DNA of 64,000 nt from Acidobacteriota bacterium (GCA_022340775.1 JAJDNH010000029.1:1653-65652), one strand, 5' to 3'. Positions 4,566 through 34,995 are shown, numbered from the stretch's first letter. Notes: generated from the letters alone by a model not told the origin. Translations and numbers: made by a program.

Positions 4566-4573
4566 GAGGCATC

Positions 4574-5275
4574 GTGGACACCTGGATCGAGCTCGCACGC
4601 GGACCGCTCTTCCGCATCGCCCTGGCCGCCCTGCTCATCGGCCTCGCCTACCGCCTCGGCTCGGCGGCAAGCCAGGTGATCCTGGCCTGGCGCCGTGCAG
4701 GAGACCGCCAGCTCCCCCTGCGCAGCGTGGTGACCGCAACCCTGTCCTGGCTGCTCCCCGTGCGGCTGCTCCGGCAACGGCCGCTGTACGGCATCGCGTC
4801 GCTGCTCTTTCACGTCAGCATCATCGCGTTACCGCTCTTTCTGGCCGGCCACGTGGTCCTGGTTCAGCCGTCGTTGCCGTTTGCATGGCCCCGGCTTCCG
4901 GGCGGCGTCGCCGACACCCTGTCGGTGGTGGCGTTCCTGGCCCTCGGCGCGGTCCTCGTCGGCCGGCTGGCCGTTCGCACCGCGCGCGTCCTGACCCGCT
5001 TTCAGGATGTCGCGGTGCTTGCCCTGCTGCTGTTTCTCGTCGGTTTCGGCTTCCTCGCCGCTCACCCGGCGCTGTCGCCGTTTCCGGCGCGCACCATGCT
5101 CCTGCTCCATATCCTGGCCGGCGATCTGGCCCTGGCCCTCACTCCGGTGACCAAGATCGCCCACTGCATCGTCTACCCGTTCACCCAGCTCATCTTCGAG
5201 CTGGCATGGCACTTCCCCGCCGACAGCGGCCGCCACGTGGTGACCGCCCTGGGTAAGGAGGGTGAGCCCGTATGA
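4574..5275 (+). CDS. NarI/DsrM/HmcE-like integral membrane cytochrome b subunit
   Basis: GTG at 4574 follows AGGAGG at 4564-4569. About five hydrophobic helices carry conserved-looking His residues (FHVSIIALPLFLAGH, LLLHILAGD, KIAHC). It lies in the frame of ORF 3869..5275. Confidence 0.65.
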   Translation: MDTWIELARGPLFRIALAALLIGLAYRLGSAASQVILAWRRAGDRQLPLRSVVTATLSWLLPVRLLRQRPLYGIASLLFHVSIIALPLFLAGHVVLVQPSLPFAWPRLPGGVADTLSVVAFLALGAVLVGRLAVRTARVLTRFQDVAVLALLLFLVGFGFLAAHPALSPFPARTMLLLHILAGDLALALTPVTKIAHCIVYPFTQLIFELAWHFPADSGRHVVTALGKEGEPV

Positions 5276-6060
5276 AGCACTTTGCGATCCTCACCGACGT
5301 CACGCGCTGCATCGGCTGCGAGGCGTGCGTCGAAGCTTGCCAGAAGACCAACGGCACCGGCGACGATGCACCGCATCGATGGCAGCCCGATCCCAACGCC
5401 CTGTCATCGAGCCGCTGGACCACCCTCGCCCACACCCGGGAGGGGCGGTTCGTCCGCGTCCACTGCCGGCACTGCCTCGACCCGTCCTGCGTTGCGGCGT
5501 GTCCGGTCGGCGCCATGCGCCGAACGCCGCAGGGGGCAGTGGTCTACGACCCGGAAATCTGTATGGGGTGCCGCTACTGCATGATCGCCTGCCCGTTCCG
5601 GATGACGCGGTACGAGTGGAGCTCCGCAGTGCCGAAGGTCCGCAAGTGCATCCTCTGCTACCAGAAGGTCATGTCCGGCGAGCTCGAGCAGCCGGCGTGC
5701 ACCGCGGCGTGTCCGACGAAGGCAACCGTGTTCGGCGAGCGCGAGGCGCTGCTGGCCGAGGCACGACGGCGCCTGGCTGCCGAGCCCGAACGCTACATCC
5801 AGCACATTTGGGGTGAGCACGAGGTGGGCGGCACGTCGGTTCTCTACCTGTCCGACGTTCCGCTGGACGAGGCTGGCTGGCCGCGCACCCTCGGCGACCA
5901 CCCTCGCCCCAAGCTGGCCCGCGAGGTGCTCGGCACGGTGCCGTGGACCTTCGCCGGCGTCGCCGTCGCCTGCTATGGCGTCCACTGGACCCTGGACCGC
6001 CGCCGCAAGGTTGCAGCGGCCGAGCACTCCCACGAGGACGAGGATGGAGGCGAACAGTGA
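5272..6060 (+). CDS. 4x[4Fe-4S] ferredoxin-type subunit (HybA/DsrO/HmcB/NrfC-like) with C-terminal TM helix
   Basis: Four Cys clusters: CIGCEACVEAC, CRHCLDPSCVAAC, CMGCRYCMIAC and CILC...CTAAC. C-terminal hydrophobic helix VPWTFAGVAVACYGVHW. ATGA overlap with the upstream gene. No twin-arginine signal is possible because an in-frame TGA sits at 5263. Confidence 0.85.
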   Translation: MKHFAILTDVTRCIGCEACVEACQKTNGTGDDAPHRWQPDPNALSSSRWTTLAHTREGRFVRVHCRHCLDPSCVAACPVGAMRRTPQGAVVYDPEICMGCRYCMIACPFRMTRYEWSSAVPKVRKCILCYQKVMSGELEQPACTAACPTKATVFGEREALLAEARRRLAAEPERYIQHIWGEHEVGGTSVLYLSDVPLDEAGWPRTLGDHPRPKLAREVLGTVPWTFAGVAVACYGVHWTLDRRRKVAAAEHSHEDEDGGEQ

Positions 6061-7997
6061 GCGGCGCGAACAACTCCCGTCTGGTGCTGACCCGCGCCGT
6101 CCTCTGGCTGGTGGTGGGCATCGCCGCCGTGGTGGCCGTGAACCGCTTCGCGCGCGGCCTGGGCGCCACCACCGCCCTCACCGACGCGACGCCGTGGGGC
6201 CTGTGGATCGGCTTTGACGTCCTTGCCGGCGTCGCGCTCGCAGCTGGCGGCTTCGTGATCGCGGCAACCGTCTACATCTTCCACCTCGACCGCTATCACG
6301 CGATCGTACGCCCGGCGGTGCTGACGGCGTTCCTGGGCTACGTCGCGGTCGTGCTCGGGCTGCTGATGGACCTCGGCCGACCGTGGAACATCTGGCGACC
6401 CATGCTCTTCTGGCAGCCTCACTCGCCGCTATTCGAAGTTGCCTGGTGCGTGATGCTCTACCTGACCGTGCTGGCCCTGGAGTTCGCGCCGGTGGTGTTC
6501 GAGGGGCTACGGCTCGAGCGCCCTCTTCGCATCATGCGGCGGCTCACGCTGCTCCTGGTGATCGCCGGCATCGGCCTCTCCACCCTCCATCAGTCCTCCC
6601 TCGGCACCCTGTTCCTGCTCGCCCGCGACCGGCTCCACCCGCTCTGGTATTCGCCGATCCTGCCGCTTCTCTTTCTGGTCTCGGCAGTGGCCCTCGGTCT
6701 GATGATGGTGACCTGTGAGAGCCTGGCCAGCTCCTGGCTGTTCCGGCACCGGCCCGAGTGGCCACTGCTTGGCGGCCTCACGCGGGCAGCGGCCGTCGTC
6801 TCCCTGCTCTACCTCGCCCTCCGCCTCGGCGATCTCGCTTGGCGCCACCAGCTCGTCTACCTGCTCGAGGGCTCGTGGGCGTCGGTGCTGTTCGTCTTCG
6901 AGATCGGCATCAGCGCGGTCGTTCCCGCCCTTCTCTTCCTGCTTCCGTCGACCCGCACGAGCCACGCCGGCGTCGCGACCGGCGCCGTGCTCGGGGTCGG
7001 CGGCTTCGTCCTCTACCGGGCCGACGTCGGCGGAATCGCCCACCTCGCGGTCGGCGGCCACCACTACGTCCCCGCCCTCACCGAGATCGTGGTCAGCGCC
7101 GGCGTGGTGTCGGCGATGGCGTTGGTGTTCCTCTTCCTGGTCGAGCGGTTTCCGGTGTGGGAGGAGCGCCCGCAGGTCCCGGGCCACTTTACGGCGCCGA
7201 TGCGGGATCGCGTGACCGGCACCTTCTTCGGCGGGCCGTGGTTCTCGCGCGCTCACCTGGGGGCGGCCGGGCTCGCGCTGGGCATGGTGCTCGGCGTGGC
7301 GCTGGTTGAGGCCGACGCCCCAACGTCGGCGGCTGCCCGGTTGCGGCCGGTGCCCGCCGCCCGTACGGCGCTGATCCGTGAGGTCAAGCGCAACCCCAGT
7401 CCCGGTCATCGCTTGGAAGTCCTATCACCCGAGCAGGTCACCCAGGACCCGGACGGCATCGAGGCCGCGCTCCTGGTCGGCGGCGGGAGGAACGGGCGCG
7501 TCGTCCTCTTCCCGCACCAGGCCCACCAGCAGCGGCTGGGCGGCCCGGCCTCGTGCGGGAAATGCCACCACCGCAACCTCCGTCACGACCGCGGGACGCC
7601 GTGTACCGCCTGCCATCGCGACATGTATGCCGCCACCGACACCTTCGCCCACCAGCCGCACGTCGAGGGGCTCGGTGGCAACGCTTCCTGCACGAAATGC
7701 CACCAGGCCGGGACAGCACCGGCTCGGGCCTCCGCCCGCGCCTGCGACGCTCCGGCCTGCCACGGTGGTGACGTCAGCACGGCCGCCGTGGCCATCAACC
7801 GCTCCAAGCTGCCGGCGGGGTACGCCCCCGGATACCGCCGCGCCATGCACACGTTGTGCATCGGCTGCCACACCCGTCACGAACAGAAGACCAAGGTCAC
7901 CACGCCCTACCTCAGCCGCTGCACCACCTGCCACCGCGATCGAGCGGTCGAACCCGAGCCGGCCACCGTTGTTGTGGCCCGGCTGGAGGCACCATGA
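6057..7997 (+). CDS. NrfD/HybB/DsrP-like polytopic quinone-interacting membrane subunit fused to a C-terminal hexahaem cytochrome c domain
   Basis: GTGA overlap with the upstream stop. About 10 NrfD-type helices plus an 11th helix (GAAGLALGMVLGVALV). Haem-binding motifs follow: CGKCH, CTACH, CTKCH, CDAPACH (CX4CH), CIGCH and CTTCH. Confidence 0.8.
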   Translation: MSGANNSRLVLTRAVLWLVVGIAAVVAVNRFARGLGATTALTDATPWGLWIGFDVLAGVALAAGGFVIAATVYIFHLDRYHAIVRPAVLTAFLGYVAVVLGLLMDLGRPWNIWRPMLFWQPHSPLFEVAWCVMLYLTVLALEFAPVVFEGLRLERPLRIMRRLTLLLVIAGIGLSTLHQSSLGTLFLLARDRLHPLWYSPILPLLFLVSAVALGLMMVTCESLASSWLFRHRPEWPLLGGLTRAAAVVSLLYLALRLGDLAWRHQLVYLLEGSWASVLFVFEIGISAVVPALLFLLPSTRTSHAGVATGAVLGVGGFVLYRADVGGIAHLAVGGHHYVPALTEIVVSAGVVSAMALVFLFLVERFPVWEERPQVPGHFTAPMRDRVTGTFFGGPWFSRAHLGAAGLALGMVLGVALVEADAPTSAAARLRPVPAARTALIREVKRNPSPGHRLEVLSPEQVTQDPDGIEAALLVGGGRNGRVVLFPHQAHQQRLGGPASCGKCHHRNLRHDRGTPCTACHRDMYAATDTFAHQPHVEGLGGNASCTKCHQAGTAPARASARACDAPACHGGDVSTAAVAINRSKLPAGYAPGYRRAMHTLCIGCHTRHEQKTKVTTPYLSRCTTCHRDRAVEPEPATVVVARLEAP

Positions 7998-22394: not shown

Positions 22395-23834
22395 TCAGTG
22401 GTGGCTGTCCGCACCTTCGAGCCGCGTCACGATTTCCAGGTAGCCCTTCTGGGCACGGAGAGTGGCCAGGTCGGCGTCACTCTGCATGTGAGCGAGGTCG
22501 TGGTAGCCGCAGTCCACGGCTCGTCGCAGTGCGGTGATGGCGTCCGCCACCCGACCGGTCCTCGCACGGACGCAGGCCAGGTTGTACCACACGTCGGGAC
22601 GGTTCGGCTTGATACGCGCGGCCACCGTCAGCACCGTGTCTGCATCCCCGTACCGCCCGGCCGCGAAGAAGTCGCGCGTCATGTAGAACGAGGTGCGGGT
22701 GAAGACGGTCTCGAGCAGACGGCGAGCGGCCATCCCTTCCGCCCCGCCCTTCCCGGCTCGCTGCAGCAGCTCATCCAGGCGCAGGTCGGCCTCCAGGCGC
22801 GTCGTCGCCACCACTGCATCCGGCGGCGCGAGCCGCGCCAGCACCTTCCACATCCGCTCGAGGTAGTGCTCTTCGTAGCTCTCCCAGCGCCGCTCGTCCT
22901 TGAGCGCGGCCTTGACCCTGCGGTCACCTTCCAGCCGCCGGGCAGCAGCACGCGGACCGCTGATATCCCGCAGGCCGTCGAAGGTTGCGGCCACCGCGCG
23001 ATAGCGGCGCAAGGCGGCCAACAGCGCCCCACCCTTTGCGAGCTCGTTGGCAGCCGCGAGATCGGCAGCGTACAGCCGCTCGACGAGCGCCGGGTCACGC
23101 GCGCGCAGTCCCTGCTTCATCGCGATCACCTCCATCCACTCAACACCTGCGCGCGCGAGGGACTCGGGCATCCAGTTGTGAGGCCCCGGGAAGAACTCGA
23201 GCCGGTGTGGAAGTCCCTTCTTCTCGAACATGGCGTCGACCCGTCGCATCTCCCAGTAGTTGAAGTCGGCATCGCCGGCGGTGCCGAAGCTGGCGAACGA
23301 CGTCGCGCTCGAGAAGGTCTCCGGCGCCGTTCGCCCACCGCTGGAGATGACGCCGGCCACCTTGCCAGTCTGTGTCGCAGCCACCCAGGCGAGGATCGCC
23401 GTACCGGAAAAGCCCGCCAGGTAGAGTCGCTTGCGGTCCGTAGCGTAGCGGAATGCGGCGTCGGGCAGGAGGGCGTTGATGGCCCGGATGCTCGGGCCCG
23501 TGGGCTCATCGCTGCGGGTGTCATTGGACGAAAGCAGAATCCAACCGTAAGTCTCCGCGGCGTCGCGGAACAGGTTGGCCGCCAGAACCGAGCGGCCCCT
23601 CGGATCCATGACTACGAGCGTCGGCCACATCCGATCCGTGGTGTAGGCGGAGGGCAGGTAGAGGGTGTAGGTCTGAGTCGGATCCTTGCGGCAGGCTACG
23701 CCCTCGACCAGCCTGCCGGTGGGGAACGAGTCGGCCGCCGCTGCCGAGACGGCGAGGGCGATCGCGAGAAGGCCGAGCAGCAGGCAGCACAGGTCTTTGT
23801 GCATCTTGCGCGAAGCAAACCGGTGAAGGACCAT
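22395..23834 (-). CDS. secreted alpha/beta-hydrolase (esterase-like) with C-terminal TPR region
   Basis: Signal peptide LLLGLLAIALAVSAAAA. Nucleophile elbow GFSGTA. TPR-like C-terminus VWYNLACVRARTGRVADAITALRRAV. The start could be the downstream ATG at 23804. Confidence 0.65.
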   Translation of the reverse strand: MVLHRFASRKMHKDLCCLLLGLLAIALAVSAAAADSFPTGRLVEGVACRKDPTQTYTLYLPSAYTTDRMWPTLVVMDPRGRSVLAANLFRDAAETYGWILLSSNDTRSDEPTGPSIRAINALLPDAAFRYATDRKRLYLAGFSGTAILAWVAATQTGKVAGVISSGGRTAPETFSSATSFASFGTAGDADFNYWEMRRVDAMFEKKGLPHRLEFFPGPHNWMPESLARAGVEWMEVIAMKQGLRARDPALVERLYAADLAAANELAKGGALLAALRRYRAVAATFDGLRDISGPRAAARRLEGDRRVKAALKDERRWESYEEHYLERMWKVLARLAPPDAVVATTRLEADLRLDELLQRAGKGGAEGMAARRLLETVFTRTSFYMTRDFFAAGRYGDADTVLTVAARIKPNRPDVWYNLACVRARTGRVADAITALRRAVDCGYHDLAHMQSDADLATLRAQKGYLEIVTRLEGADSHH

Positions 23835-23878: not shown

Positions 23879-24163
23879 TCAGAGCAGGCGGCGGCCGTCG
23901 ATCGTCAGCTCGTCGACAATCCCGACCACGACCGCCCGCACGGGGCCGTTCGGCTCCTCCAGCACCTGACGAGCGGAGTTGCCCTCGTCGAGCACGAGGA
24001 CCGTCTCTCCGGGCCCGGCGTCCACCACGTCGATGGCGATGACATACCCCCCGGCAGGCTCGCCGGTGGCGGTGAGAAGGTCGACGAGCAGCAGCCGGCG
24101 GCCGTCAAAAACCGGCGAGTTGATGGTGGAGACCACGGTTCCGGCAACTCGGCCGATCTTCAC
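23879..24163 (-). CDS. BMC vertex protein (BMC-P, EutN/CcmL family) 1
   Basis: MKIGRVAGTVVSTINSPVFDGRRLLLVDLL...VLVLDEGNSARQ is the canonical EutN/CcmL pattern. Confidence 0.9.
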   Translation of the reverse strand: MKIGRVAGTVVSTINSPVFDGRRLLLVDLLTATGEPAGGYVIAIDVVDAGPGETVLVLDEGNSARQVLEEPNGPVRAVVVGIVDELTIDGRRLL

Positions 24164-24435
24164 GGTCCGCCTCCGTCGACCGCGTCGACGATACCGACGA
24201 TGGCGTGGTCCACCGGGACGAAGGTCACCGGCAGGGCGAGCGACGCCTCCCGGCTGGCGACGAAGTAGACCAGCTCCCCGGGGCCGGCCATCGCCACTCC
24301 GTCCGCAGCCACCAGCGGTCGGCCACGCGGCGTGAGATCGCGCTCCAGAGGCTGCACGATGAGCAGCGGAACACCCTCGAGACCACGGTACGCGGTCGTC
24401 GCTACGACGGTGCCAACGACGCGCCCCAACTGCAT
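24160..24435 (-). CDS. BMC vertex protein (BMC-P, EutN/CcmL family) 2
   Basis: MQLGRVVGTVVATTAYRGLEGVPLLIVQPL.... It lies in the frame of ORF 24160..24951, starting at ATG 24435. 4-nt overlap with the downstream BMC-P. Confidence 0.85.
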   Translation of the reverse strand: MQLGRVVGTVVATTAYRGLEGVPLLIVQPLERDLTPRGRPLVAADGVAMAGPGELVYFVASREASLALPVTFVPVDHAIVGIVDAVDGGGP

Positions 24436-24436
24436 C

Positions 24437-25033
24437 TCAGCCGCTCCCGCCGCTGATGCGCTGCCTGAACTCCGGCGCCGCCTCCAGGTTGGAGAGCATC
24501 TCCTCGGCAAACTGCGGGATGACGACCTTGGCGACCAGGTTCTCTGGATGCTGGAGGTCCGCCACGGCAAGGTCGACGGCGGCTTCGACATCGGCAACGT
24601 CGCCCGAGAACACGCAGTACGCCTTGCCGCCAAGACGGTCCGCGAGACGGATCTCCAGCAGACCGACGTCGGCACCCTTGACCCCGCGGTCCGCGGCGCC
24701 CACGGTTGCCGCAACCGTGCGCGTCTCAACCACACCCAGAGCTTCGCCAACGACTCGCCCACGCACGCCGCGCAACGTCGATAGGACGTCGGGGTGGACC
24801 CCGGGTAGGAAGACATGATCGACCACCGCCTCGGCTCCGGCCGCCAGGCCTGCGGCGAGCGCTTCCTCGACGCTGGCCACGTCACCGCCGACCAGGACCA
24901 GGTACTTGCCTGGGTGGACGGTACCGGCGTACGCGACCTCGACCGGCGCACGCTTGACCATTGCGTCGCCGGCGCGGACGCCGATCGCGATGGAATCGAG
25001 CTCGACGAGAGCGATGGCCGGGTACATCGTCAC
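24437..25033 (-). CDS. tandem-domain BMC shell protein (BMC-T, PduT-like)
   Basis: Two BMC domains: AIALVELDSIAIGVRAGDAMVKRAPV... and ALGVVETRTVAATVGAADRGVKGADV.... From memory it is colinear with PduT, with TVHPGKY where PduT has TICPGKF. Confidence 0.85.
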   Translation of the reverse strand: MTMYPAIALVELDSIAIGVRAGDAMVKRAPVEVAYAGTVHPGKYLVLVGGDVASVEEALAAGLAAGAEAVVDHVFLPGVHPDVLSTLRGVRGRVVGEALGVVETRTVAATVGAADRGVKGADVGLLEIRLADRLGGKAYCVFSGDVADVEAAVDLAVADLQHPENLVAKVVIPQFAEEMLSNLEAAPEFRQRISGGSG

Positions 25034-26466
25034 ACGATCCGTAGGCCGCCGGCCACAGTCATTCGCCGCACTCGGGAGAAGCTCCGGGGACGGGTGAGGC
25101 CCTCGCCGGTCGGGCTGGCGATCGAGAAGGAGCTGTAGCCCTCGCCGCCGTCGCCGAGCCCGGCGAGGTTGGCGGCGTTGGCGACGAAGATGCTGACGTC
25201 GATCTCGCGCGCCATGCGGGTAATGGCGTTGACGTCACTGGAGTAGATCGAGGCGGTGTGACCACAGCCGCGCTCGGCACGAATCGCGAGCGTGATGGCG
25301 GCGTCGACATCGGGCACCCTTACCACCGGCAGCACCGGCATCATCTGCTCGGTCCACACCAGGCTGTGCTCCACCGGCACGTCGGCCACCGCAAGCCGAA
25401 TGTCGCCGTCCGCGCGGACGCCGATCTCGGCCAGTATTGCACCCGCGTTCTGTCCGATCCAGCGTGGGTCGACATGCCCCGGCCGCTCGCCCTCGCCGAG
25501 GTCGGTGAAGATTGTCCTCTCGAGCCGCTTGAGCTCGTGCTCTGCGAGCACGTAGGCGCCGCTGGCGGCCATCGCCTGCAACAGGCGGTCGGCCACCTTC
25601 GCGACCACGAATACCTCCTTCTCGTCCGTACAGATGAGGTTGTTGTCAAACGACGCGCCGCGCACGATCTCGTGTCCCGCGAGCGCGATGTCGGCGGTCT
25701 CGTCGACGACCACCGGCGGGTTGCCGGGCCCCGCCAGGATCGAGCGCTTAGGGGTCTTGCGCGCCTCTTCGACCACCCCCGGTCCACCGGTGACGAGCAG
25801 CAGGCGCACACGGGGGTGACGCATCAGGCGCTGGGCGCTCTCGATCGTCGGCTCCGGCACCGCGGTGACCAGGTCCGGCGGGCCTCCAGCCTCGACAATC
25901 GCCCGGTTGATCCAACGAATGTTCTGAACCGACACCGCCTTGGCCTTGGGGTGGGCGTTGAACACGACGGCGTTGCCGGCTGACACCGCCGCGATCGTGT
26001 TGTTGATGATGGTTGCCGTCGGGTTGGTGGTGGGGGTGATGGCGCCGATAACGCCGAACGGGGCGTACTCGGTGAGGGTCAACCCCCGGTCTCCGCTCCA
26101 CACCTGGGGCTCGAGGTCTTCCGGACCGGGCGTCTTGGCCGTCACCAGCATGTTCTTGAGCTTCTTGTCCTCGGTTCGGCCGAGCCCGGTTTCCTCATGG
26201 GCCATCTGGGCCAGCGCGCCGGCGCGTTCCCGCATCTCGCAGCGCACCGCGTCGATGATGCGGTGTCGCTGCTTCAGGCCCATCGTGCGGTAGCTGACGA
26301 ACGCAGCCCAGGCAGCCCCAACCGCCCGCTCGATTGTCGGGTAGATCCCGTCTCCCGGCTCAGCGGGGGGAACGGCGGCCGCCATCGGGACGGCGGCAGA
26401 GCCGGAGAGCCTCAGCCGTACTCGCTCGATAATGCCCTGAATCTCCTCCTGCGGTATCGTCAGCAT
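25030..26466 (-). CDS. acylating (CoA-dependent) aldehyde dehydrogenase, PduP/EutE-like, with N-terminal targeting helix
   Basis: Aldehyde dehydrogenase fold with catalytic-Cys context NNLICTDEKE. N-terminus MLTIPQEEIQGIIERVRLRL is followed by an Ala/Pro linker. ATG at 26466 follows GGAGG; the ORF-track start at 26520 is a GTG without an RBS. Confidence 0.85.
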   Translation of the reverse strand: MLTIPQEEIQGIIERVRLRLSGSAAVPMAAAVPPAEPGDGIYPTIERAVGAAWAAFVSYRTMGLKQRHRIIDAVRCEMRERAGALAQMAHEETGLGRTEDKKLKNMLVTAKTPGPEDLEPQVWSGDRGLTLTEYAPFGVIGAITPTTNPTATIINNTIAAVSAGNAVVFNAHPKAKAVSVQNIRWINRAIVEAGGPPDLVTAVPEPTIESAQRLMRHPRVRLLLVTGGPGVVEEARKTPKRSILAGPGNPPVVVDETADIALAGHEIVRGASFDNNLICTDEKEVFVVAKVADRLLQAMAASGAYVLAEHELKRLERTIFTDLGEGERPGHVDPRWIGQNAGAILAEIGVRADGDIRLAVADVPVEHSLVWTEQMMPVLPVVRVPDVDAAITLAIRAERGCGHTASIYSSDVNAITRMAREIDVSIFVANAANLAGLGDGGEGYSSFSIASPTGEGLTRPRSFSRVRRMTVAGGLRIV

Positions 26467-26576
26467 CGGCCTCCGTCCATCCGTGTCACCCTCCGGCCCG
26501 TCAGCCCCGGCCCAGTACACCCATGCTCAGCGACTTTGTCCCGCTAATCGCCCGGCCGGCGCCGTCATTGCCGCGC

Positions 26577-26891
26577 TCAGCTCGCCCACTCTCCGCCAGC
26601 CGGCGTCTTCCTGTACACCTCTTGGCCCCCCAGCTCCCAGCTGTCGACAATGGCCATGATGACCGCATCGCACGGCCGGTCACGGGTCGCCTCGGTCTGG
26701 CGTGCCGACGACCCGGAGGCCCACAACACGACCTCACCGAGGCCCGCTCCCACGGCGTCCACGGCCACGACGTGGCCGCCGGTCTCGGTGCCGTCCACGT
26801 CGAGCTGGCGCACGACCAGGAGCTTTTGGCCGGCCAGGCCCTCGTCCTTGCGGCTGGCAACCAGGGTGCCGGCCACCCGGCCGAGCAGCAT
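26577..26891 (-). CDS. BMC vertex protein (BMC-P, EutN/CcmL family) 3
   Basis: [30 protein letters not shown]...[17 protein letters not shown] 1-nt overlap with the BMC-H gene. Confidence 0.9.
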
Positions 26892-27202
26892 CAGCCCTTG
26901 CCCTTCGTCTCGGCGACGACCTGGTCGGTACGGCCGAGAGGCAGCACCACGTCGATGTTGACGTGCGGCCTCGCGATGACGTGGGTGGAGACGACCTCGC
27001 CAACGGTCTGGGCGCCGCGCACGCCCGCATCCACCGCCGCCTTCACTGCCGCCACGTCGCCACGCACGATCGCCGTGACGTAGCCGCCGCCGGTCTTCTC
27101 GTACGAGACGAGCTCGACCTTGGCCGCTTTGACCATCGCATCGGCCGCCTCGACCATGGCCGCGAACCCGCGGGTCTCGATCATCCCTAACGCCTCAGCC
27201 AT
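26891..27202 (-). CDS. BMC hexamer shell protein (BMC-H, PduA/CcmK-like)
   Basis: [60 protein letters not shown] is the canonical single BMC domain. Confidence 0.95.
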
Positions 27203-27274
27203 TGAGCTCTCCTTTCAGAACCGTCGTTGTCAAGCCCTCGTCCCGCGACGCGGTGTCGAGGGCTGTTGGACTCA

Positions 27275-27916
27275 CTACTGCTCCTCCTGACGCCCCTCGA
27301 CGCTGTCGATCGCGGCCGCGGCCGCCCGCCAGCCGACGTCGATGTCACGCTCCTCACCGCCCAGGTAGACGCGGCCCATGGAGCCGAATGCCCGTACCTC
27401 GAGAATGTTGATCTCGGCTGCCTTCTCGGCCTCGTTGGCGGCCAGAGCTGCGTATGCCGCGGGCTCCACCTCGAGCACGTACAGGGTCTGCCCGGGAATG
27501 ATCATGTGCCCATGGCGCATCCGGTTAATCAGCTGTGCCTGGTGGTCGTCGAGGTGCCGGATCACCTGGCTGGAGAGGACCCGCGGCTTGCGCCGGTCGG
27601 CTTCAGTCAGGCCGAGGTCGGCGAGGATCGCCGCGCCTGCGGCGCGGGTATCGGCCTGCGATTGCGAGTGCACCTCGAGCAACCCGTAGTAGCGCTCGAC
27701 GATCTGCATCCCGGGACGCACGTGGGTCGCCTTCAGAGCCACGTCGGTGAGCCGGTTGATCTCGATGCCGGGCGAGATCTCGACGTACAGCGAGGCGTCG
27801 TTGGCCAGCGGTAGGAAACCCTGCGCGATGGTCCCGAGGAAAGCCGCGTACTGCGGCTGCAGGGAGTCGAGAAACACGTACGAACGAAGATCAATATGAT
27901 TCACCGGAGCCTCCAT
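27275..27916 (-). CDS. tandem-domain BMC shell protein (BMC-T, CcmP/CsoS1D-like double-stacking type)
   Basis: 213 aa. Segments [23 protein letters not shown]...[18 protein letters not shown]...[30 protein letters not shown]...GGEERDI. From memory these closely resemble cyanobacterial CcmP. Confidence 0.8.
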
Positions 27917-28721
27917 CCTCGCCGGTCACGATGCGCACCCCCGCCGACGCTCCGATCCGGGTGGCGCCGGCCGTGATCATCTGGCGCACCTCTTCCGCGG
28001 TGTGGATTCCGCCCGCAGCCTTGACGCCCATCTTCGGGCCTACGGTCTCCCGCATCAGGGCAACGTCGAACACCGTCGCTCCGCCGGGGCCGAACCCGGT
28101 GGAGGTCTTCACGAAGTCGGCGTGGCCCATCTGGGCCAGGCGGCAGGCGACGACCTTCTCCTCGTCGGTCAGATAGGCCGCTTCGATGATCACCTTGTTG
28201 AGCGCACCGACCTCCCGGCAGGCGTCGCTGACACCGGCAACGTCCCGACGCACGAGCTCATGGTCACCGCCTTTGAGGGCGCCGATGTTGATCACCATGT
28301 CGATCTCGCGGGCGCCCTCGCGCAACGCGCGCCGCGCTTCCATCGCCTTGATCTCGGGGGTGTTCGCGCCGAGTGGAAAGCCGACCACCGAGGCCACCGT
28401 GACCCTGCTGCCGCGCAGGCGGCGGGCAGCTCGGGCCACCCACGCCGGGTTGATGCACACGGCGGCGAACCCGTATTGGACGGCCTCGTCGCACAGGCGG
28501 TCGATCTCGGCCGCCGTCGCGTCGGGACGCAGCAGGGTGTGGTCGATAAAGGCCGCCACGCTCGGGGGCACGTCGGCGCCGTTGCCGCAGTAGCCAATGC
28601 GTGCGGCACCGTTGGCGACCGCCTGCTCCGCATGCTCCAGGGGCTGTGCCGGTGCTCGGCCCGCCAGCTCCTCGAGCACCTGACGCGTCACCGCTTCGAT
28701 GAGCTCGTCACGATCGATCAT
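27891..28721 (-). CDS. deoC: deoxyribose-phosphate aldolase (DERA) with about 55-aa N-terminal extension
   Basis: Motifs [37 protein letters not shown] and FVKTSTGF (Schiff-base Lys context). N-terminal amphipathic segment [16 protein letters not shown]. Confidence 0.9.
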
Positions 28722-29272
28722 CAGACGTCCTTCGCTCGCAGATAACGCTGCTCAATATCGCAGATCAGGCCGACCCGCCGCGCGTGGCGGCCCGATCCCC
28801 ACGGTGTGGCCAGCCACTCGTCGACAATCTGCCGGGCCAAGGCCTCACCAACCAGGCCGCCGCCGAGGGTGAGCACGTTGGCATGGTTGTGCTCTCGGCT
28901 GTTGCGAGCCGTTGAAAGGTCGTAGCACAGGGCAGCGCGAACCCCCGGCACCTTGTTGGCCGCCATACAGGAGCCGATCCCGGCACCGTCGACCACGATG
29001 CCCCAACGGCAGGCACCCGCTGCCACCAACCGTGCCACCTCGTGAGCGAAGTCTGGGTAGTCCACCGGACCGGAGCCGCCGCAGCCGCAGTCGCGCACAT
29101 CTCGTCCCTGGCCCTGGAGGTGCTCGATCAGAACCTGCTTGAGCCGGAAGCCGCCGTGGTCGGCACCGATCGCGATCACCTCGGCCGCGTCGCTCGCGTC
29201 GCGTCCCGCTCCTCCTAGAGCCGCGTCCACGGCGCGGGTCACGACGCTGCGGATCTCGTCCTCGGTGGTCAT
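28721..29272 (-). CDS. rpiB: ribose-5-phosphate isomerase B (RpiB/LacAB family) with about 30-aa N-terminal extension
   Basis: Motifs [25 protein letters not shown] and [12 protein letters not shown]-terminal amphipathic segment [16 protein letters not shown]. Confidence 0.9.
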
Positions 29273-29318
29273 CCCTCCACCTCACCACCGGACGCCGGGC
29301 GCCACCGCCCTTGCCGCA

Positions 29319-29993
29319 TCACCACGCCCTCCAGTCGAGCTCCCGTGACCGCTGCCGGGGCGGGCTCGTCACACGCATCGCTGCTGGAGCGGCGGTCGGG
29401 TCATGGCTCGTGAGCAGCCCCAGGTAGGTTTGCAGCTGACTCGTTACTGCATCGAACGGTGCCACGCTGCGGGCCACCCGGGACTGGATCAACGCGCCCT
29501 CGACGGCCGACAGGACCAGTCTCGCCAGCGCCGTCCTGTCCGTGCTAGCCGGGAGCCGCTTGCCGACCCCATCCAACAAACCCTCCATCCTCTGAGCCCA
29601 CGATGCGAACAGTTGCTCGAGCTTCAACCTCACCTGGGAGTGGTCTTCGCCGAGCTCGGCGGCCAGCGTCCCAAGCGGGCTACCGAGGACGAACTCGTTG
29701 TCCTCCAGGTGCCTCCGGTAGAAGCCCACGACCGCGAAGATGCGCTCGATAGGGTCGTCGGTCACGACCTCTGCGGCCCCAAAGACCTCGTCCTCGACTA
29801 CCTCGCCGACGTGATCCAGGACCGCCAGCAGGAGGTCCTCCTTGGTGGGAAAGAAGTGGTAGAAACTGCCGCTGGTCGCTCCCGCCTGCTGCATGATCGC
29901 GTTGACGCCGGTTGCCGCGTAGCCCTGGCGCCAGAACAGCTCCGCCGCGGTCCTCACCAGCCGCTCCCGAGTTGTCGTCCGGCGTCCCGCCAA
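29319..29993 (-). CDS. TetR-family transcriptional regulator (first gene of the BMC gene string)
   Basis: HTH segment RERLVRTAAELFWRQGYAATGVNAIMQQAGATSGSFYHFFPTKEDL. TTG start lies 6 nt after GGAGG. Confidence 0.85.
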   Translation of the reverse strand: MAGRRTTTRERLVRTAAELFWRQGYAATGVNAIMQQAGATSGSFYHFFPTKEDLLLAVLDHVGEVVEDEVFGAAEVVTDDPIERIFAVVGFYRRHLEDNEFVLGSPLGTLAAELGEDHSQVRLKLEQLFASWAQRMEGLLDGVGKRLPASTDRTALARLVLSAVEGALIQSRVARSVAPFDAVTSQLQTYLGLLTSHDPTAAPAAMRVTSPPRQRSRELDWRAW

Positions 29994-30043
29994 GATCGGC
30001 CTCCGCTCTCCGACCGTTCTGAGTGGAACGATCTATACACTTC

Positions 30044-30072
30044 ATGATAGGACCGAAGAACGGGGCTGTCAA
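30044..30072 (-). promoter_or_regulatory. sigma70-type promoter TTGACA-N17-TATCAT reading into the TetR/BMC string
   Basis: The minus strand has TTGACA (30072-30067), a 17-nt spacer and TATCAT (30049-30044). A CGTTC-N6-GAACG inverted repeat at 30015-30030 lies just downstream and is a possible operator. Confidence 0.5.
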
Positions 30073-30288
30073 CAGCGGCCACCGGCCGTTCCTCACCGCC
30101 AGCTACTGCGCCTTCGAGTGGAGCTTTCTCTCTAACTGGTCGAGAGCTGCAGGCACCGACGGGGCCAGCAGCAGCGTATCGCTGAGGGAGCTGCAAACTC
30201 CATCCCTGATCGCCCTGATGCGGCCGCGGCATGCAGCCACGCAGGACAACAGCGCTTGGTCTCACGCAGCTTCTCTCTGGCGTGCATC

Positions 30289-30317
30289 TTGACAGGGAAG
30301 AATTACAATTCTATTTT
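30289..30317 (+). promoter_or_regulatory. sigma70-type promoter TTGACA-N17-TATTTT with an embedded palindrome GAATT-AC-AATTC
   Basis: TTGACA at 30289-30294 and TATTTT at 30312-30317 with a 17-nt spacer. The palindrome at 30300-30311 lies inside the spacer. This is an AT-rich island in GC-rich DNA, upstream of the second TetR/efflux operon. Confidence 0.5.
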
Positions 30318-30445
30318 CAGAACTCTGATTCCGATGCGCATCGCGCAGAGGGATCCGCCGAGTTGCGCGCAGTGACCCAGGCCGCAGAGGGACCACATAG
30401 GCAGGTCTCCGTCCAAACCTGTCGGCGGCCGCAGGAGGTTGTGAA

Positions 30446-31054
30446 GTGAACACGCGCCGAGCCAGGGAGAAGGCACTGCGCCGGGAGCTGGTGCTCCAGG
30501 CCGCCGAGCGTGTGTTCGGACGCCGCCCGTTCCACGAAGCGACCATGCAGATGGTGGCTGCAGAGGCGGACCTGGGGATGCAGAGCCTTTACGAGCAGTT
30601 CCCCTCCAAGCAGGAGCTCTACGAGGCCGTCATCCTCCACCGGGCCCGGACCTTCCAGGCGCGGCTGGAGGAAGCCCTGGAGAACCTGGCCGACCCCCTC
30701 GACCAGCTCACCGCTGTCGCCCGCGTCCGGACGCGGATGTTCACGGAATCGCCAGCCTTCCTGCCAGTGTTCCTGGCCGAGAGGGTGCGCTGCAACTGGG
30801 GGGTCAGGTCGCGCTCGAGCCGGCGCATCGGCGGCATCATGAAGGACGCAAGCCAACGGCTGGAAGGAATCATCGAACGAGGTGTCACGGTCGGCCTTCT
30901 GCGACGCGAGGACCCGGCCTTCCTCGTCCACCTCTTCAACGACACCCTCACGGCGGCGCTCTACGCCCACCAAACCAACCCACAGGAGGAGATCGAGACA
31001 TGCATCCAACGCGCCATCAGGGCCTTCCTCCACGGTACGGCGGCCGAGTCGTGA
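30446..31054 (+). CDS. TetR-family transcriptional regulator
   Basis: GTG start lies 7 nt after AGGAGG. HTH segment LVLQAAERVFGRRPFHEATMQMVAAEADLGMQSLYEQFPSKQEL. Confidence 0.85.
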   Translation: MNTRRAREKALRRELVLQAAERVFGRRPFHEATMQMVAAEADLGMQSLYEQFPSKQELYEAVILHRARTFQARLEEALENLADPLDQLTAVARVRTRMFTESPAFLPVFLAERVRCNWGVRSRSSRRIGGIMKDASQRLEGIIERGVTVGLLRREDPAFLVHLFNDTLTAALYAHQTNPQEEIETCIQRAIRAFLHGTAAES

Positions 31055-32403
31055 AAGCCTCACGCCTGCTCGCTGCATGTGCGCTCGCGGCCGTCCCACT
31101 GACGACCGCCGCCGGCGGCGCCGACACCCCTGCGGCGCTCACCCTGTCACAGGCGTTGCAACGGGTCGCCAAGAGCTCGCAGGCCTCGGCCGATCGCGAC
31201 CTTGACGTTGCGGCGTCCCGCCAGCTGACCCGTCAGACCCGCGCCTCCCTCTACCCCACGCTCGACATCTCTGGGGGTTTCACGGATCGGGACAGCCCCG
31301 CGATCGCCGTGTTCGGCGACTTCGAGGCACCTCTGAATGACAACACGTACCTGCAGTACCAGGTCTCGGCCCGGTATCTGTTGTGGGACGGTGGTTTGCG
31401 GAGGTCGTCGATCGCGGCGGCGCAAGCTCTGGAGGACGTCGCCGGTGACGCCGGCGATGTCCGTATCGTCGGCGCGCAGCTCGAGGGCATGGGGGCCTAC
31501 CTGCAGGCGATGATGGCTAAGGCCCGGCAGGCGGCGGTGGCGAAGCGGATCGACGCGGTCCAGGGCCACCTGAAGGTCGTGCAAGACATGTTCGGGCAGG
31601 GGATGGTGGCGCGCAACGACCTCTTGGAGACCGAGGTGAGGCTGCGCACCGTCAAGGACCGGGCGCTCGAGCTGACCGACCAGGAAGACGCGGCGGTGCG
31701 GGAGCTCGAGCGGCTCATGGGGGAGGCACCGGGCGGCACCATGTCACTGCCAGACCGCCTGCCGCCGCCGCCGCCCCTCGGCGGATCGCGCGACGAGCTG
31801 GTCAAGGACGCGCTCGACAGCAACCCGCTGATCCGGGCTGCGCAGGCCAAAGTCACGGCCGCCGCCAAGCAGGCGGCGCTGCAGCAGCTCACGGGCCGCC
31901 CCAAGGTGTTTGCGGAGGCGGCACATACCTACGAGCAAAACCCGTACATGCTGTACCCCAACGCGAACTACATCTTCCTCGGCTTCTCCTGGAACTTGTT
32001 CGACGGCGGCACTCGAACCACCCAGCGAGAGCGGGCGTCGCTCGAGGTCGCCAAGGCACAGCGGGCGCTCGAGGAGGCGCGTCGCCAGGCCTCCAACGGC
32101 GTCGACAAAGCGTATCGGGAGTACCGCCAGGCGCTGCGAGAGGCGAAGACCGCCCGGGCCAACGTGGCCGCGGCCGAGGAGAACCTGCGCATCGAGGAGG
32201 ACCAGTACCGCGCCGGCCTCGCCAAGACCACCGACGTTCTCGACGCGGAGGCGCTCTTGGCCGAGAGCCGCTTCACCTTGATCGCCCAGCACTACAACGC
32301 CTACCTCAAGCAAGGCCGCTTGCTCGCGTTCTCGGGCAAGAACCTGGTCGAGTTCTACAGCAGCCTGGCGCCGAGCACCGAAGCCAAAGGAGCAAGCTCA
32401 TGA
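31051..32403 (+). CDS. TolC-family outer membrane efflux protein
   Basis: GTGA overlap with the TetR stop. Signal peptide LLAACALAAVPLTTAAG. Two coiled repeat halves are typical of the OEP family. Confidence 0.85.
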   Translation: MKASRLLAACALAAVPLTTAAGGADTPAALTLSQALQRVAKSSQASADRDLDVAASRQLTRQTRASLYPTLDISGGFTDRDSPAIAVFGDFEAPLNDNTYLQYQVSARYLLWDGGLRRSSIAAAQALEDVAGDAGDVRIVGAQLEGMGAYLQAMMAKARQAAVAKRIDAVQGHLKVVQDMFGQGMVARNDLLETEVRLRTVKDRALELTDQEDAAVRELERLMGEAPGGTMSLPDRLPPPPPLGGSRDELVKDALDSNPLIRAAQAKVTAAAKQAALQQLTGRPKVFAEAAHTYEQNPYMLYPNANYIFLGFSWNLFDGGTRTTQRERASLEVAKAQRALEEARRQASNGVDKAYREYRQALREAKTARANVAAAEENLRIEEDQYRAGLAKTTDVLDAEALLAESRFTLIAQHYNAYLKQGRLLAFSGKNLVEFYSSLAPSTEAKGASS

Positions 32404-33458
32404 AGAAGTGGATCGGCCTGGCGGTGATCCTGCTGTTCATCGGCGGCGGGGTCGTGACGTGGTTCTTCTACTGGAAGAACGCCCGCCTGTACCCGAGTAC
32501 CGAGGATGCATACGTGGCCGGCGACGTCTACCAGATCTCGTCAAGGATCCCGGGCACGGTTCTGACCCTCGACGTCGACGACAACCAGCCGGTGGCGGAG
32601 GGTCAGGTGGTGGCGACGATCGATCCCGAGCCGTACGACAGCGAGGTCGACCAGGCAAGGGCGGCGCTGGCACAGGCCCGCACGGTTCCGGCAACCAACC
32701 GGGCGAAGATCGCTCAGGCCAAGGCCGACGTCGAAGCGGCGGCCAGCGACCTCGAGCTGGCACGGGCCGACCTCGCCCGCTTCACGGAGCTCGTGCAGCG
32801 GAACTCGATCCCGAAGCGGGCTTACGATCAGGCGGTCGCTGCCGAGCAGGTGGCCGCCGCCCGGCTCGCGGCCAAGCAGAAGGCGCAGGCCGCGGCCGAG
32901 GCGAGTCTCGACGTGAGCGAGAAGGACGTGAAGCGGGCCGAGACCGCCCTGGCGGCGGCGCAGCTCCGGCGCTCCTACTGCACGATTCGCGTCCCGGTAG
33001 CCGGCATCGTCAGCGAGAGCACTGCGCATGAGGGACAGGTGGTGGCTCCGGGCCAGCCGCTGTTCGCGGTCGTCCCGCTGCACGGGGATCACCTCTGGAT
33101 CGAGGCCAACTTCAAGGAGACACAGCTGGCCAGGATCCGACCGGGCCAGCCGGTCAGTTTCTACACCGACGTCAACCCGGACCAGAAGTACCACGGCACC
33201 GTCGAGAGCCTCAGCGCGGGTACCGGGGCCGCCTTCTCTCTGCTGCCGCCGGAGAACGCGACCGGCAACTGGGTCAAGGTCGTGCAACGACTGCCGGTCC
33301 GTATCGCCGTGGACCCGGCCTCGGCCGCCGGTCAGACCCTCCGCCTCGGGCTTTCCGTTCACGTGACCGTTGACACGGCGGCCGGCGACCGGTCAGGCCC
33401 GGAACAGAGCCCGGAGAGGACGGAGAAGGCGGGGGATGGCGGAAGCAGCTCCCAGTAA
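32400..33458 (+). CDS. HlyD/EmrA-family membrane fusion protein
   Basis: N-terminal TM helix. Lipoyl-like segments GQVVATIDPEPY and VPVAGIVSE flank a long coiled coil. Confidence 0.9.
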   Translation: MKKWIGLAVILLFIGGGVVTWFFYWKNARLYPSTEDAYVAGDVYQISSRIPGTVLTLDVDDNQPVAEGQVVATIDPEPYDSEVDQARAALAQARTVPATNRAKIAQAKADVEAAASDLELARADLARFTELVQRNSIPKRAYDQAVAAEQVAAARLAAKQKAQAAAEASLDVSEKDVKRAETALAAAQLRRSYCTIRVPVAGIVSESTAHEGQVVAPGQPLFAVVPLHGDHLWIEANFKETQLARIRPGQPVSFYTDVNPDQKYHGTVESLSAGTGAAFSLLPPENATGNWVKVVQRLPVRIAVDPASAAGQTLRLGLSVHVTVDTAAGDRSGPEQSPERTEKAGDGGSSSQ

Positions 33459-34995
33459 GTACCTGATCGCCGTCACGGCGATGATCGGCACCCTGATGGA
33501 GGTCATCGACACCTCGGTGGCCAACGTGTCGCTGCCCCACATGCAGGGCACGTTCTCGGCCGGCGTCGACGAGGTGACCTGGGTCATCACGTCGTACCTG
33601 GTGGCCAACGCGATCATCCTCCCGATCACCGGTTGGCTGGGCAACTACTTTGGGCGCAAGCGCTTCTACATCACCTGCCTGGCCGTGTTCACGCTCGCAT
33701 CGCTGGGCTCGGGATCAGCGCCGACCCTGCCCTTTTTGATCATCATGCGCGTGCTGCAGGGGTTCGCAGGCGGTGCCATGGTGCCCATGTCGCAGGCCAT
33801 CCTGCTGGAGTCGTTCCCGAAGGAGGAGCACGGCAAGGCGATGGCGATGTTCGGCGTCGGGGTGGTGTTCGGCCCGATCATTGGGCCGACTCTCGGCGGC
33901 TACATCACCGATACCATGACCTGGCGCTGGGTCTTCTACATCAACCTCCCGGCCGGCGTCCTCGGGATTCTGCTGGCCCTCCTGATCATCAAGGACCCGC
34001 CGTACCTGCAGCGGCCCAAGGGACGCGTGGACTACTGGAGCTTCGCTTTCATCGCCCTCGGGCTCGGCTCGCTCGAAGTGATGCTCAACCGCGGCCAGCG
34101 CTACGACTGGTTCCACAGCAACTTTGTCACCTTCTTTGCGTTGTGCGCGGTGCTGGGCCTGGCGCTGTTCGTTTGGCGTTCCTTGACAGCCGCCAACCCG
34201 CTGGTGGACCTGAGGCTATTCGGGAACCGCGAGTTCGCGAGCGGCACCTTCTTGATGTTCTTGCTCGGCTTCGGCCTTTATGGCTCGTTCACGATGTTGC
34301 CGTTGTTCGCACAGAAGCTGATGGGCTACACCGCGACCTGGGCCGGGCTCGTGCTGTCGCCGGGCGGCATCGCGTCGCTCGTTGCGATGGTCTTTGTCGG
34401 CAACCTGGTGGGCAAGGTCGACACGCGCCTGCTGGTGCTGGTCGGCGCGCTGTTCAACATCGCCTCACTGTGGCTTCTCCACGACCTCAACCTGCAGGTG
34501 GACTTCTTCTTCCTGATGATGTCGCGGCTGCTGCAAGGGTTCGGCCTCGGCTTCCTCTTCGTCCCGATCACCGCCGCCGCCTTCGTACGGCTGTCGCGAC
34601 AGCAGACCGGCCAGGGAACCGGCCTCTTCAACCTGTTCCGCAACGAGGGCGGTTCGGTCGGCATTGCGATGGCCGCGACCGTGCTGGCGCGGCGAGCCCA
34701 GCACCATCAGACGCACCTCGTGGAGCACCTGACACCGTACTCACAGGTCTTCCAGCACCGGATGGCCGATGCCACCCAGGCCCTCCTCGCCACCTCCGGC
34801 CGCGACCCGGTCACCAGCCACAACCTCGCCGAGGGCATCATGTACGGAATCGTGCGGCAGCAGGCGGGCGCCATGGCCTATGTCGACGTCTTCTTCATGC
34901 TCACGATCGCGTTCGTGGCCTTTCTGCCGTTCATCCTCCTGCTGGCGGGCAGAAACGGCCGCTCCACGCCCGAGGAGCTGCGGGAGGAGGCGTAA
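33436..34995 (+). CDS. DHA2-family MFS efflux permease (EmrB/QacA-like, 14 TM)
   Basis: Segment SVANVSLPHMQGTFSAGVDEVTWVITSYLVANAIILPITGWLGNYFGRKRFY. 14 hydrophobic segments. Confidence 0.9.
   Translation: MAEAAPSKYLIAVTAMIGTLMEVIDTSVANVSLPHMQGTFSAGVDEVTWVITSYLVANAIILPITGWLGNYFGRKRFYITCLAVFTLASLGSGSAPTLPFLIIMRVLQGFAGGAMVPMSQAILLESFPKEEHGKAMAMFGVGVVFGPIIGPTLGGYITDTMTWRWVFYINLPAGVLGILLALLIIKDPPYLQRPKGRVDYWSFAFIALGLGSLEVMLNRGQRYDWFHSNFVTFFALCAVLGLALFVWRSLTAANPLVDLRLFGNREFASGTFLMFLLGFGLYGSFTMLPLFAQKLMGYTATWAGLVLSPGGIASLVAMVFVGNLVGKVDTRLLVLVGALFNIASLWLLHDLNLQVDFFFLMMSRLLQGFGLGFLFVPITAAAFVRLSRQQTGQGTGLFNLFRNEGGSVGIAMAATVLARRAQHHQTHLVEHLTPYSQVFQHRMADATQALLATSGRDPVTSHNLAEGIMYGIVRQQAGAMAYVDVFFMLTIAFVAFLPFILLLAGRNGRSTPEELREEA

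Follow-up and report, generated by a model that had tools for sequence, protein, structure and literature searches.

A compact microcompartment operon from an uncultured member of the Acidobacteriota matches the SPU3 type of sugar-phosphate utilisation locus

Background

Bacterial microcompartments (BMCs) of the sugar-phosphate utilisation (SPU) class rank with the most widespread organelles of bacteria, and their supposed role in sediments and soils is the recycling of sugar derived from DNA. SPU loci have been split into seven subtypes (Sutter et al. 2021, Nat Commun, PMC8217296). The enzymes of subtype SPU3 are an aldehyde dehydrogenase (AldDh), a pfam01791 protein and a pfam02502 protein, with N-terminal encapsulation peptides (EPs) on AldDh and on the pfam01791 protein (PMC8217296, Supplementary Data 2). 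The SPU3 shell comprises one standard hexamer (BMC-H), a triplet of pentamers (BMC-P), a tandem-domain, double-stacking trimer (Tdp) of the CcmP clade and a single-layer tandem-BMC trimer (Ts) without PduS or a pore cysteine, and its hosts include Acidobacteria, Actinobacteria, Calditrichaeota, Chloroflexi, Lentisphaerae and Marinimicrobia (PMC8217296). Here we describe a locus at positions 23879-29993 of a 64,000-nucleotide stretch of DNA, hereafter the window, from an Acidobacteriota bacterium (GCA_022340775.1, JAJDNH010000029.1:1653-65652). It encodes a TetR-family regulator, an RpiB-like protein (RPI), an aldolase of deoxyribose-5-phosphate (DERA), a CoA-acylating aldehyde dehydrogenase (AldDH) and six shell proteins.

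The only SPU system with enzymology is SPU6 of Chloroflexi bacterium GWB2_54_36, whose DERA was purified, was active on deoxyribose-5-phosphate and formed a roughly 1:1 complex with RPI (Dwyer, Sutter & Kerfeld 2024, PMC11585597). The SPU6 RPI was nearly inactive on ribose-5-phosphate, and the residue corresponding to Cys66 is Asp in all SPU RPIs (PMC11585597). A 2025 preprint describes archaeal SPU homologue shells that self-assemble and recruit cargo in an EP-dependent manner, and states that the role of RPI is unexplored. A preliminary description of the window had held the class to be known only from genome mining, a view that the SPU6 DERA enzymology (PMC11585597) and the 2025 preprint on shells have made outdated. 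The other close relative is the Haliangium-type (HO) locus, the source of a model synthetic shell (5V74, 5DJB, 5V76, 5DIH). HO loci are defined by shell proteins and AldDh, optionally accompanied by a pfam00596 aldolase, and by the lack of pfam01791 and pfam02502 in the locus.

Results and discussion

The region 23879-29993 contains ten open reading frames (ORFs), all on the minus strand, co-directional and tightly packed or overlapping, as an ORF and junction check of the genes listed in the preliminary description confirmed. The locus matches the published SPU3 description on every feature of its genes that could be compared, and its relatives fit that description as well. We estimate the probability at about 0.85 that it is an SPU3 operon of an uncultured Thermoanaerobaculales-like member of the Acidobacteriota, working by the steps proposed below. 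The operon is intact and complete, and is a further example of a catalogued subtype in a class that has been partly characterised biochemically. The earlier assignment to the SPU class, which was based on RpiB-like, DERA and acylating AldDH genes, is borne out by family matches. Among the conditions that would refute it, the preliminary description had named a match to an already characterised type; in part this applies, because the locus matches SPU3, catalogued in 2021, but the SPU call itself stands.

The signature enzyme

The aldolase (27891-28721, 276 aa) lies inside the shell-gene locus, as does the pfam01791 DERA that is the universal signature enzyme of SPU loci, and overlaps both of its neighbours. 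It matches Pfam DeoC (7.4e-17) and far exceeds the deoC equivalog threshold (TIGR00126, 275 bits against a cut-off of 117), and its best matches in the PDB are all DERAs (8qps, 1.2e-77). Residues D141, K205 and K234 align with the catalytic D102, K167 and K201 of the E. coli enzyme and are invariant in 30 close homologues. By its profile score and its catalytic triad the protein is a genuine DERA and not another DeoC/LacD-family enzyme, a grouping that the preliminary description had named as fatal to its call. An identical DERA (P0038; "Acidobacteria bacterium" metagenome-assembled genome (MAG)) is annotated by NCBI as 226 aa, without a 50-residue extension. This is an annotation trap, as the public model truncates the encapsulation extension.

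The aldehyde dehydrogenase

AldDH (25030-26466, 478 aa) most probably begins at ATG 26466, with GGAGG 7 nt upstream of it, and not at GTG 26520. It matches Pfam Aldedh (1.9e-42), NF011927 (597 bits, cut-off 403) and the PduP-type enzyme of R. palustris (5jfl, 4.6e-121), with the catalytic Cys aligned in 'NNLICTDEKE'. Judged by these matches, the enzyme is of the CoA-acylating PduP/EutE type.

The RpiB-like protein and the question of substrate

RPI (28721-29272, 183 aa) matches Pfam LacAB_rpiB (1.1e-50 over residues 33-169) and barely exceeds the rpiB equivalog threshold (141.5 bits on TIGR01120, whose cut-off is 138.65; a margin of 3 bits). In an alignment with E. coli RpiB, Cys66 is replaced by Asp95 and Thr68 by Ala97, so both the catalytic Cys and the Thr of a functional RpiB are lacking. 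The sugar- and phosphate-binding residues D38/H39, H128/N129 and R162/H163/R166 (E. coli D9/H10, H99/N100 and R133/H134/R137) are kept, and a DGAGIGS motif is invariant among 23 orthologues. A pfam02502 protein with Asp in place of Cys66 and with His99 retained, here Asp95 and His128, has the features of an SPU-type RPI. Because of the SPU-specific change of Cys66 to Asp95 and of Thr68 to Ala97, the protein is probably not a ribose-5-phosphate isomerase. The earlier label "RpiB" thus holds for the family and is imprecise for the enzyme, whose catalytic Cys is replaced by Asp.

These residues also bear on a reading that we consider unlikely, namely that the locus encodes an SPU compartment whose substrate is not, or not only, deoxyribose-5-phosphate, with RPI a real isomerase using an Asp base and DERA cleaving or forming some other aldol product. 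RPI would then have swapped its base from Cys66 to Asp95 while keeping all substrate- and phosphate-binding residues, and strict conservation of DGAGIGS across phyla would be unusual for a pure scaffold. Dwyer et al. report active RpiB variants with a Glu base, broad RPI specificity and no obvious pathway role for a ribose-5-phosphate isomerase (PMC11585597), and the RpiB family includes isomerases of erythrulose-4-phosphate and galactose-6-phosphate (NCBIfam match list). However, deoxyribose-5-phosphate lacks a C2 hydroxyl and is therefore no substrate for an aldose-ketose isomerase, and Thr68 is lost as well (Ala97). The SPU6 RPI has negligible activity on ribose-5-phosphate and its complex leaves the kinetics of DERA unchanged (PMC11585597), SPU5 loci lack RPI entirely, and DeoR-like regulators in sister loci point to deoxyribose-5-phosphate. 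It is similarly doubtful that the Asp-Gly-Ala variant of RPI is a working enzyme for another sugar phosphate or an allosteric sugar-phosphate sensor controlling DERA. If it were, SPU3 compartments would process more than deoxyribose-5-phosphate, and the Thermoanaerobaculales version, with its TetR regulator and a DERA extension without four cysteines (see below), would be a streamlined, differently regulated variant.

N-terminal extensions

All three enzymes carry N-terminal extensions, which orthologues share and which are absent from the solved homologues of DERA and RpiB. The extension preceding the region of homology is about 53 residues in DERA (DERAs in the PDB align from residue 54) and 32 residues in RPI (alignments begin at residue 33), whereas AldDH aligns from about residue 21-40, its nearest solved relatives being themselves BMC-type enzymes. 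Each of the three extensions opens with a similar acidic-hydrophobic helix motif, [DE]E[IL]xxx[IV]xRxV. In AldDH the motif, EEIQGIIERVRLRL ('EEIQxIIERVRxRL'), is conserved in orthologues, and most aligned orthologues keep that of DERA; free-living DERAs at three of the related loci (L052, L061 and L076) lack an extension. In an AlphaFold model of DERA, residues 4-19 are helical and the TIM barrel follows from about residue 55. The model's mean predicted local distance difference test (pLDDT) score is 70.8, a moderate confidence that reflects the shallow alignment. A helical N-terminal extension on DERA and a predicted EP-like helix on AldDH are both features of SPU enzymes.

In most related BMC-associated DERAs a motif of four cysteines lies between the N-terminal helix and the barrel. 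Its spacing is C-x2-C-x3-C-x3-C in SPU3-like loci (e.g. CASCVRGCAAQC) and C-x3-C-x4-C-x3-C in SPU6-like loci (e.g. CKVECVDDLCVTTC), and the motif may be a metal or Fe-S site. It occurs in loci L007-L013, L015, L017, L024, L026, L031-L035, L037, L040, L043, L044, L046, L048-L050, L056, L058-L060, L063, L065, L068, L069, L071, L073, L074, L077, L078, L082 and L084. The motif is absent from the corresponding part of the window DERA (28560-28721) and from the Thermoanaerobaculales relatives; these DERAs have lost it. The main text of Dwyer 2024 (PMC11585597) does not mention the motif.

Shell proteins

The six remaining structural genes encode one BMC-H, one CcmP-like double-stacking BMC-T, one PduT-fold single BMC-T and three BMC-P. 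Pfam and PDB matches thus bear out the inventory of the preliminary description, and Pfam likewise confirmed the families that it had assigned to the other genes. BMC or EutN profiles match five of the six shell ORFs; the 213-aa trimer falls below the Pfam BMC cut-off (19.4 vs 24.5 bits), and its identity is instead confirmed by a match to CcmP in the PDB (4ht5). No further or satellite shell genes were found in the 64-kb window.

The BMC-Tdp gene (27275-27916, 213 aa) encodes what is clearly, from its structural matches, a CcmP/CsoS1D-type tandem BMC protein. It matches two CcmP structures (4ht5, 1.6e-85 and 65% identity; the second, 2.5e-85), the Haliangium proteins 5v76 (5.7e-74) and HO-5816 (2.5e-68) and, more weakly, CsoS1D (6.1e-53), and it carries PF27545 CsoS1D_N in precomputed annotation. 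A Glu74-Arg75 pair is invariant across orthologues, and we take it to be the equivalent of the E69/R70 gating pair of CcmP. The protein also exceeds the NCBIfam cut-off for the beta-carboxysome CcmP equivalog (343.6 vs 340 bits). This is a second annotation trap, in that the double trimer scores as a carboxysome protein though the locus is no carboxysome.

On the strength of that score, and of CcmL, EutM and EutN models from NCBIfam that match the other shell proteins below their cut-offs, automatic naming ('CcmP', 'EutN/EutM') would make this a carboxysome-related locus or another known metabolosome (EUT, PDU or GRM). We give this reading almost no credence. RuBisCO, carbonic anhydrase, CcmM/N, EutBC, PduCDE and a glycyl-radical enzyme are all absent from the locus and from the 64-kb window, so that the signature enzymes of those systems are lacking and DERA, RPI and AldDH stand in their place; moreover, a CcmP-like Tdp is documented for SPU2 and SPU3. 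A beta-carboxysome in particular, the candidate raised by the CcmP equivalog match, was rejected because there are no carboxysome enzymes in the locus or window.

The single BMC-H (26891-27202, 103 aa) matches Pfam BMC (1.3e-30) and bears KAAK and RPH interface motifs and an EKTGGGY pore loop. Its best natural match in the PDB is HO-5815 of Haliangium (1.6e-42), with 73 of 93 residues identical (78%), so the earlier label "PduA-like" was right in calling it a BMC-H and imprecise as to its relatives. BMC-P1 (26577-26891, 104 aa) matches EutN_CcmL (1.2e-28) and, in the PDB, is closest to the Haliangium shell pentamer in 5v74 (1e-32). BMC-P2 (24160-24435, 91 aa; EutN_CcmL, 1.8e-22) is about 39% identical to BMC-P3 (23879-24163, 94 aa; EutN_CcmL, 1.6e-24), which adjoins it as in the SPU pentamer pair of the published description. 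The paralogues are 39-42% identical where they are detectably similar; P1 and P2 show no significant match to each other.

BMC-Ts (24437-25033, 198 aa) contains two Pfam BMC domains (5.6e-36) and matches PduT over its full length (3n79, 5.1e-38). The trimer has the same tandem BMC fold as PduT of the Salmonella/Citrobacter Pdu compartment, but it has no PduS partner, and His40 aligns with PduT position 38, whose cysteine we take to be a ligand of the [4Fe-4S] cluster. The pore cysteine expected of a PduT-type Fe-S trimer is therefore missing, and the label "PduT-like" is correct for the fold only. With neither a pore cysteine nor PduS, a role as an electron conduit is not expected. Three histidines would face the pore of the trimer. 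Of 23 aligned orthologues, 22 have His, Gln, Thr or Gly here and only L066 has Cys, and this variation implies no specific metal site.

Related loci and classification

When 185,579 species genomes were scanned with DERA, 80 loci were returned, which were then searched locally by tblastn with all ten proteins. Twenty-one further fetched loci, spread over at least five phyla, have the order RPI-DERA-Tdp-H-P-AldDH-Ts-P-P (a few of their contigs end early). They come from Thermoanaerobaculia, Holophagaceae, Acidimicrobiia, Chloroflexota, Neomarinimicrobiota, Calditrichia and Lentisphaerae. Those closest to the window locus belong to Thermoanaerobaculales (Acidobacteriota) MAGs, in which DERA is 77-80% and Tdp about 90% identical and a TetR gene again lies upstream. 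In a protein search with DERA, over 120 clusters, each of about 276 aa, reached at least 80% identity, and a close relative comes from Candidatus Sulfomarinibacteraceae (Thermoanaerobaculales). The genes that flank the operon in the window are beside no relative, and because the flanks are not conserved the unit held in common comprises nine genes, RPI through P3; for the same reason, the flanking genes were rejected as part of the system. In two of the related MAG loci (L038:12225-13669 and L043:10723-13744) some genes matched in several pieces, namely AldDH in both and Tdp and a pentamer gene in L043. This fragmentation points to frameshifts, arising from pseudogenisation or assembly error.

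Within the SPU class, the CcmP-like Tdp and a Ts with neither a PduS gene nor a pore cysteine are as specified for SPU3. So are an unfused RPI followed by DERA, the N-terminal EPs, the one standard BMC-H, the triplet of pentamers with two adjacent, the lack of a phosphotransacylase (PTAC) and the host in the Acidobacteria. The locus differs from SPU3 in three respects: it is led by TetR, where five of the ten sister loci scanned have DeoR/SorC- or AsnC-type regulators; its DERA extension lacks the four-Cys motif of most sister loci; and its RPI has an EP-like helix that is not listed in the 2021 description.

Two other subtypes come close. A second architecture found in Anaerolineae, RPI-DERA-P-AldDH-H-Tdp-P-P with an AldDH about 30% identical to that of the window, corresponds to SPU6. 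The window locus resembles SPU6 in the DERA triad and N-terminal extension, the change of Cys66 to Asp with retention of His99 in RPI, the adjacent RPI and DERA genes, three pentamers, one hexamer, a Tdp and no PTAC. However, SPU6 has that different gene order, no BMC-Ts, a GntR regulator, a distribution in Chloroflexi only and a Tdp of another clade (about 50% identity to the window protein), and it was ruled out by gene order, its lack of Ts and the AldDH identity. SPU2 was ruled out by its fourth pentamer, by the pore cysteine that 80% of its Ts proteins retain and by its different host phyla; a Spirochaete locus, L053, has that architecture.

The relationship to Haliangium is closer in the shell than in the enzymes. 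Besides the 78% identity of BMC-H, P1 and Tdp are close homologues, the core order Tdp-H-P-AldDH-Ts is shared and AldDH has an N-terminal EP in both. One could therefore read the locus as an HO metabolosome, whose function is not known, lying by chance beside housekeeping deoC and rpiB genes, and the relatedness of HO AldDh to SPU AldDh would suit that reading, as would the proximity of the shell to Haliangium (BMC-H to HO-5815, P1 to 5v74, Tdp to HO-5816 and 5v76). We nevertheless hold this to be very improbable. The main HO locus lacks DERA and RPI, and by definition HO loci have no pfam01791 or pfam02502, whereas in this operon translational coupling links DERA and RPI to the shell genes (overlaps of 1 and 26 nt). 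Both carry N-terminal extensions of BMC type, which free DERA and RpiB lack, and both co-occur with shell genes in the 21 further loci. Haliangium also has three trimers, with two extra pentamers in a satellite locus, and HO-T1 is distant from the window Ts (3.7e-21 vs 5.1e-38 for PduT). The HO classification, raised by the BMC-H identity and core synteny, was accordingly rejected, DERA and RPI being integral to the operon.

Proposed mechanism

The steps proposed here beyond protein identity follow the published SPU model, with which the lumen chemistry put forward in the preliminary description agrees. One promoter upstream of the TetR gene would drive the ten genes, and the shell would consist of one hexamer, two trimers, of which one is single-layer and the other a gated double trimer, and three paralogous pentamers. 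The N-terminal helices on DERA, AldDH and the RpiB-like protein would target the enzymes to the inside of the shell or co-aggregate them there. Deoxyribose-5-phosphate, derived from the breakdown of DNA or deoxynucleosides, would enter the shell and be cleaved by DERA to glyceraldehyde-3-phosphate, which would leave for glycolysis, and acetaldehyde, which would be retained and converted by AldDH to acetyl-CoA with NAD+. As the locus and window contain no phosphotransacylase, alcohol dehydrogenase or PduS, acetyl-CoA, CoA and NAD(H) presumably move in and out by way of the CcmP-like double trimer, with its wide gated pore. The RpiB-like protein is most likely a DERA-binding core or scaffold subunit and not a ribose-5-phosphate isomerase.

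Several points weigh against this account. It infers the substrate, the encapsulation, the assembly of the shell and the regulation, and SPU3 loci and native hosts have so far been described from sequence. The single SPU system with enzymology, SPU6, has an AldDH of another branch with a C-terminal EP, about 30% identical to that of the window, and the literature leaves the role of RPI in SPU compartments unresolved (PMC11585597; 2025 preprint). In the AlphaFold model the DERA extension has low confidence (pLDDT about 55), and a hydrophobic-moment test indicated modest amphipathicity of the three N-terminal helices, which for AldDH was not significant. With respect to the pentamer clades of the SPU definition (grey, orange and green/blue/purple for the class, green/grey/orange for SPU3), it is only the gene positions that are consistent here. 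No genes for the supply of deoxyribose-5-phosphate (phosphopentomutase, nucleoside phosphorylases or deo genes) are present in the 64-kb window. Finally, the lineage of the window has a TetR regulator in place of the DeoR-like one.

The locus adds a compact, complete nine-gene SPU3 example with a regulator from Thermoanaerobaculales, a lineage related to the marine-sediment Acidobacteriota. What interest remains concerns the function of RPI and the value of the locus as a compact, HO-like system for experiments. Since its minimal shell is very close to the well-studied Haliangium shell, it could be a tractable system for SPU3 assembly, the targeting of cargo by three helices and the role of RPI.

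Regulation

The regulator gene (29319-29993) encodes a protein of 224 aa if it starts at TTG 29993, or 212 aa from GTG 29957, with TetR_N (1.9e-15) and TetR_C_13_2 (2.1e-16) domains; no NCBIfam equivalog for it reached its cut-off. Two Thermoanaerobaculales relatives, L005 and L006, also have a TetR gene there (42-43% identity). Upstream of the window gene, on the minus strand, a sigma-70-like sequence, TTGACA-17-TATCAT (30044-30072), is the candidate operon promoter. It is a consensus match only, at 11 of 12 positions; two such sites occur in 7.1 kb against 0.5 expected from shuffles. No palindromic TetR operator was found in the intergenic region 29950-30460, no riboswitch or other known RNA element in the locus at E <= 0.1, and no intrinsic terminator was predicted after BMC-P3.

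Among the heads of ten sister loci scanned, four had a DeoR/SorC-type regulator and one, L065 from Calditrichia, an AsnC-type regulator. SorC-family genes (PF04198) lie directly upstream of RPI at L012:8315-9376, L013:6668-9328, L015:8381-9379 and L019:5016-5963, in Chloroflexia and Neomarinimicrobiota, and the best NCBIfam match for the three scanned is Bacillus DeoR (203-368 bits, below the cut-off of 420). The effector of DeoR is deoxyribose-5-phosphate, and the DeoR-like regulators of sister loci thus lend indirect support to this compound as the substrate of the family.

Gene boundaries

The 1-nt TGATG overlaps at 26891 and 28721 are as first described, and a GTGA overlap of 4 nt joins P2 and P3 at 24160. 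A further 4-nt overlap reported at 25030 depends on GTG 25033 being the start of BMC-Ts, and one public gene call starts two codons downstream. DERA and BMC-Tdp overlap by 26 nt if Tdp starts at ATG 27916. The P2 gene is 24160-24435, as the listed ORF, 24160-24951, crosses the BMC-Ts gene out of frame. Third-position GC was 0.80-0.86 in eight of the ten ORFs, those kept by a GC3 filter in the true frame, in sequence of 67-68% GC, a coding-type composition as expected of real genes. The nine-gene block is identical in four independent public assemblies, so the locus is not an assembly artefact.

Neighbouring genes

Downstream of P3, at a distance of 44 nt and with no terminator predicted between, lies a minus-strand gene (22395-23834). 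Its 479-aa product has a hydrophobic segment at the N-terminus and TPR repeats at the C-terminus. The gene is beside no related locus and so probably has nothing to do with the compartment. On the other side, a divergent plus-strand operon (30289-34995) with its own promoter-like site (30289-30317) encodes a second TetR protein (30446-31054), an outer-membrane factor, an HlyD-type adaptor and an MFS transporter. Pfam scans of the 64-kb window found no PTAC, PduS, TPI or Fe-type alcohol dehydrogenase, and no genes for cofactor recycling were found elsewhere in it; its remaining genes encode regulators, efflux and transport systems, peptidases and redox proteins. A respiratory-type cluster on the plus strand (3105-7997) comprises genes for a CCG/4Fe-4S protein (3105-4565), for a 4Fe-4S dicluster protein (5272-6060) and, at 5943-7997, for an NrfD-like membrane protein to which a class III multihaem cytochrome c domain is fused, and fits an anaerobic, possibly sulfur-cycling, host.

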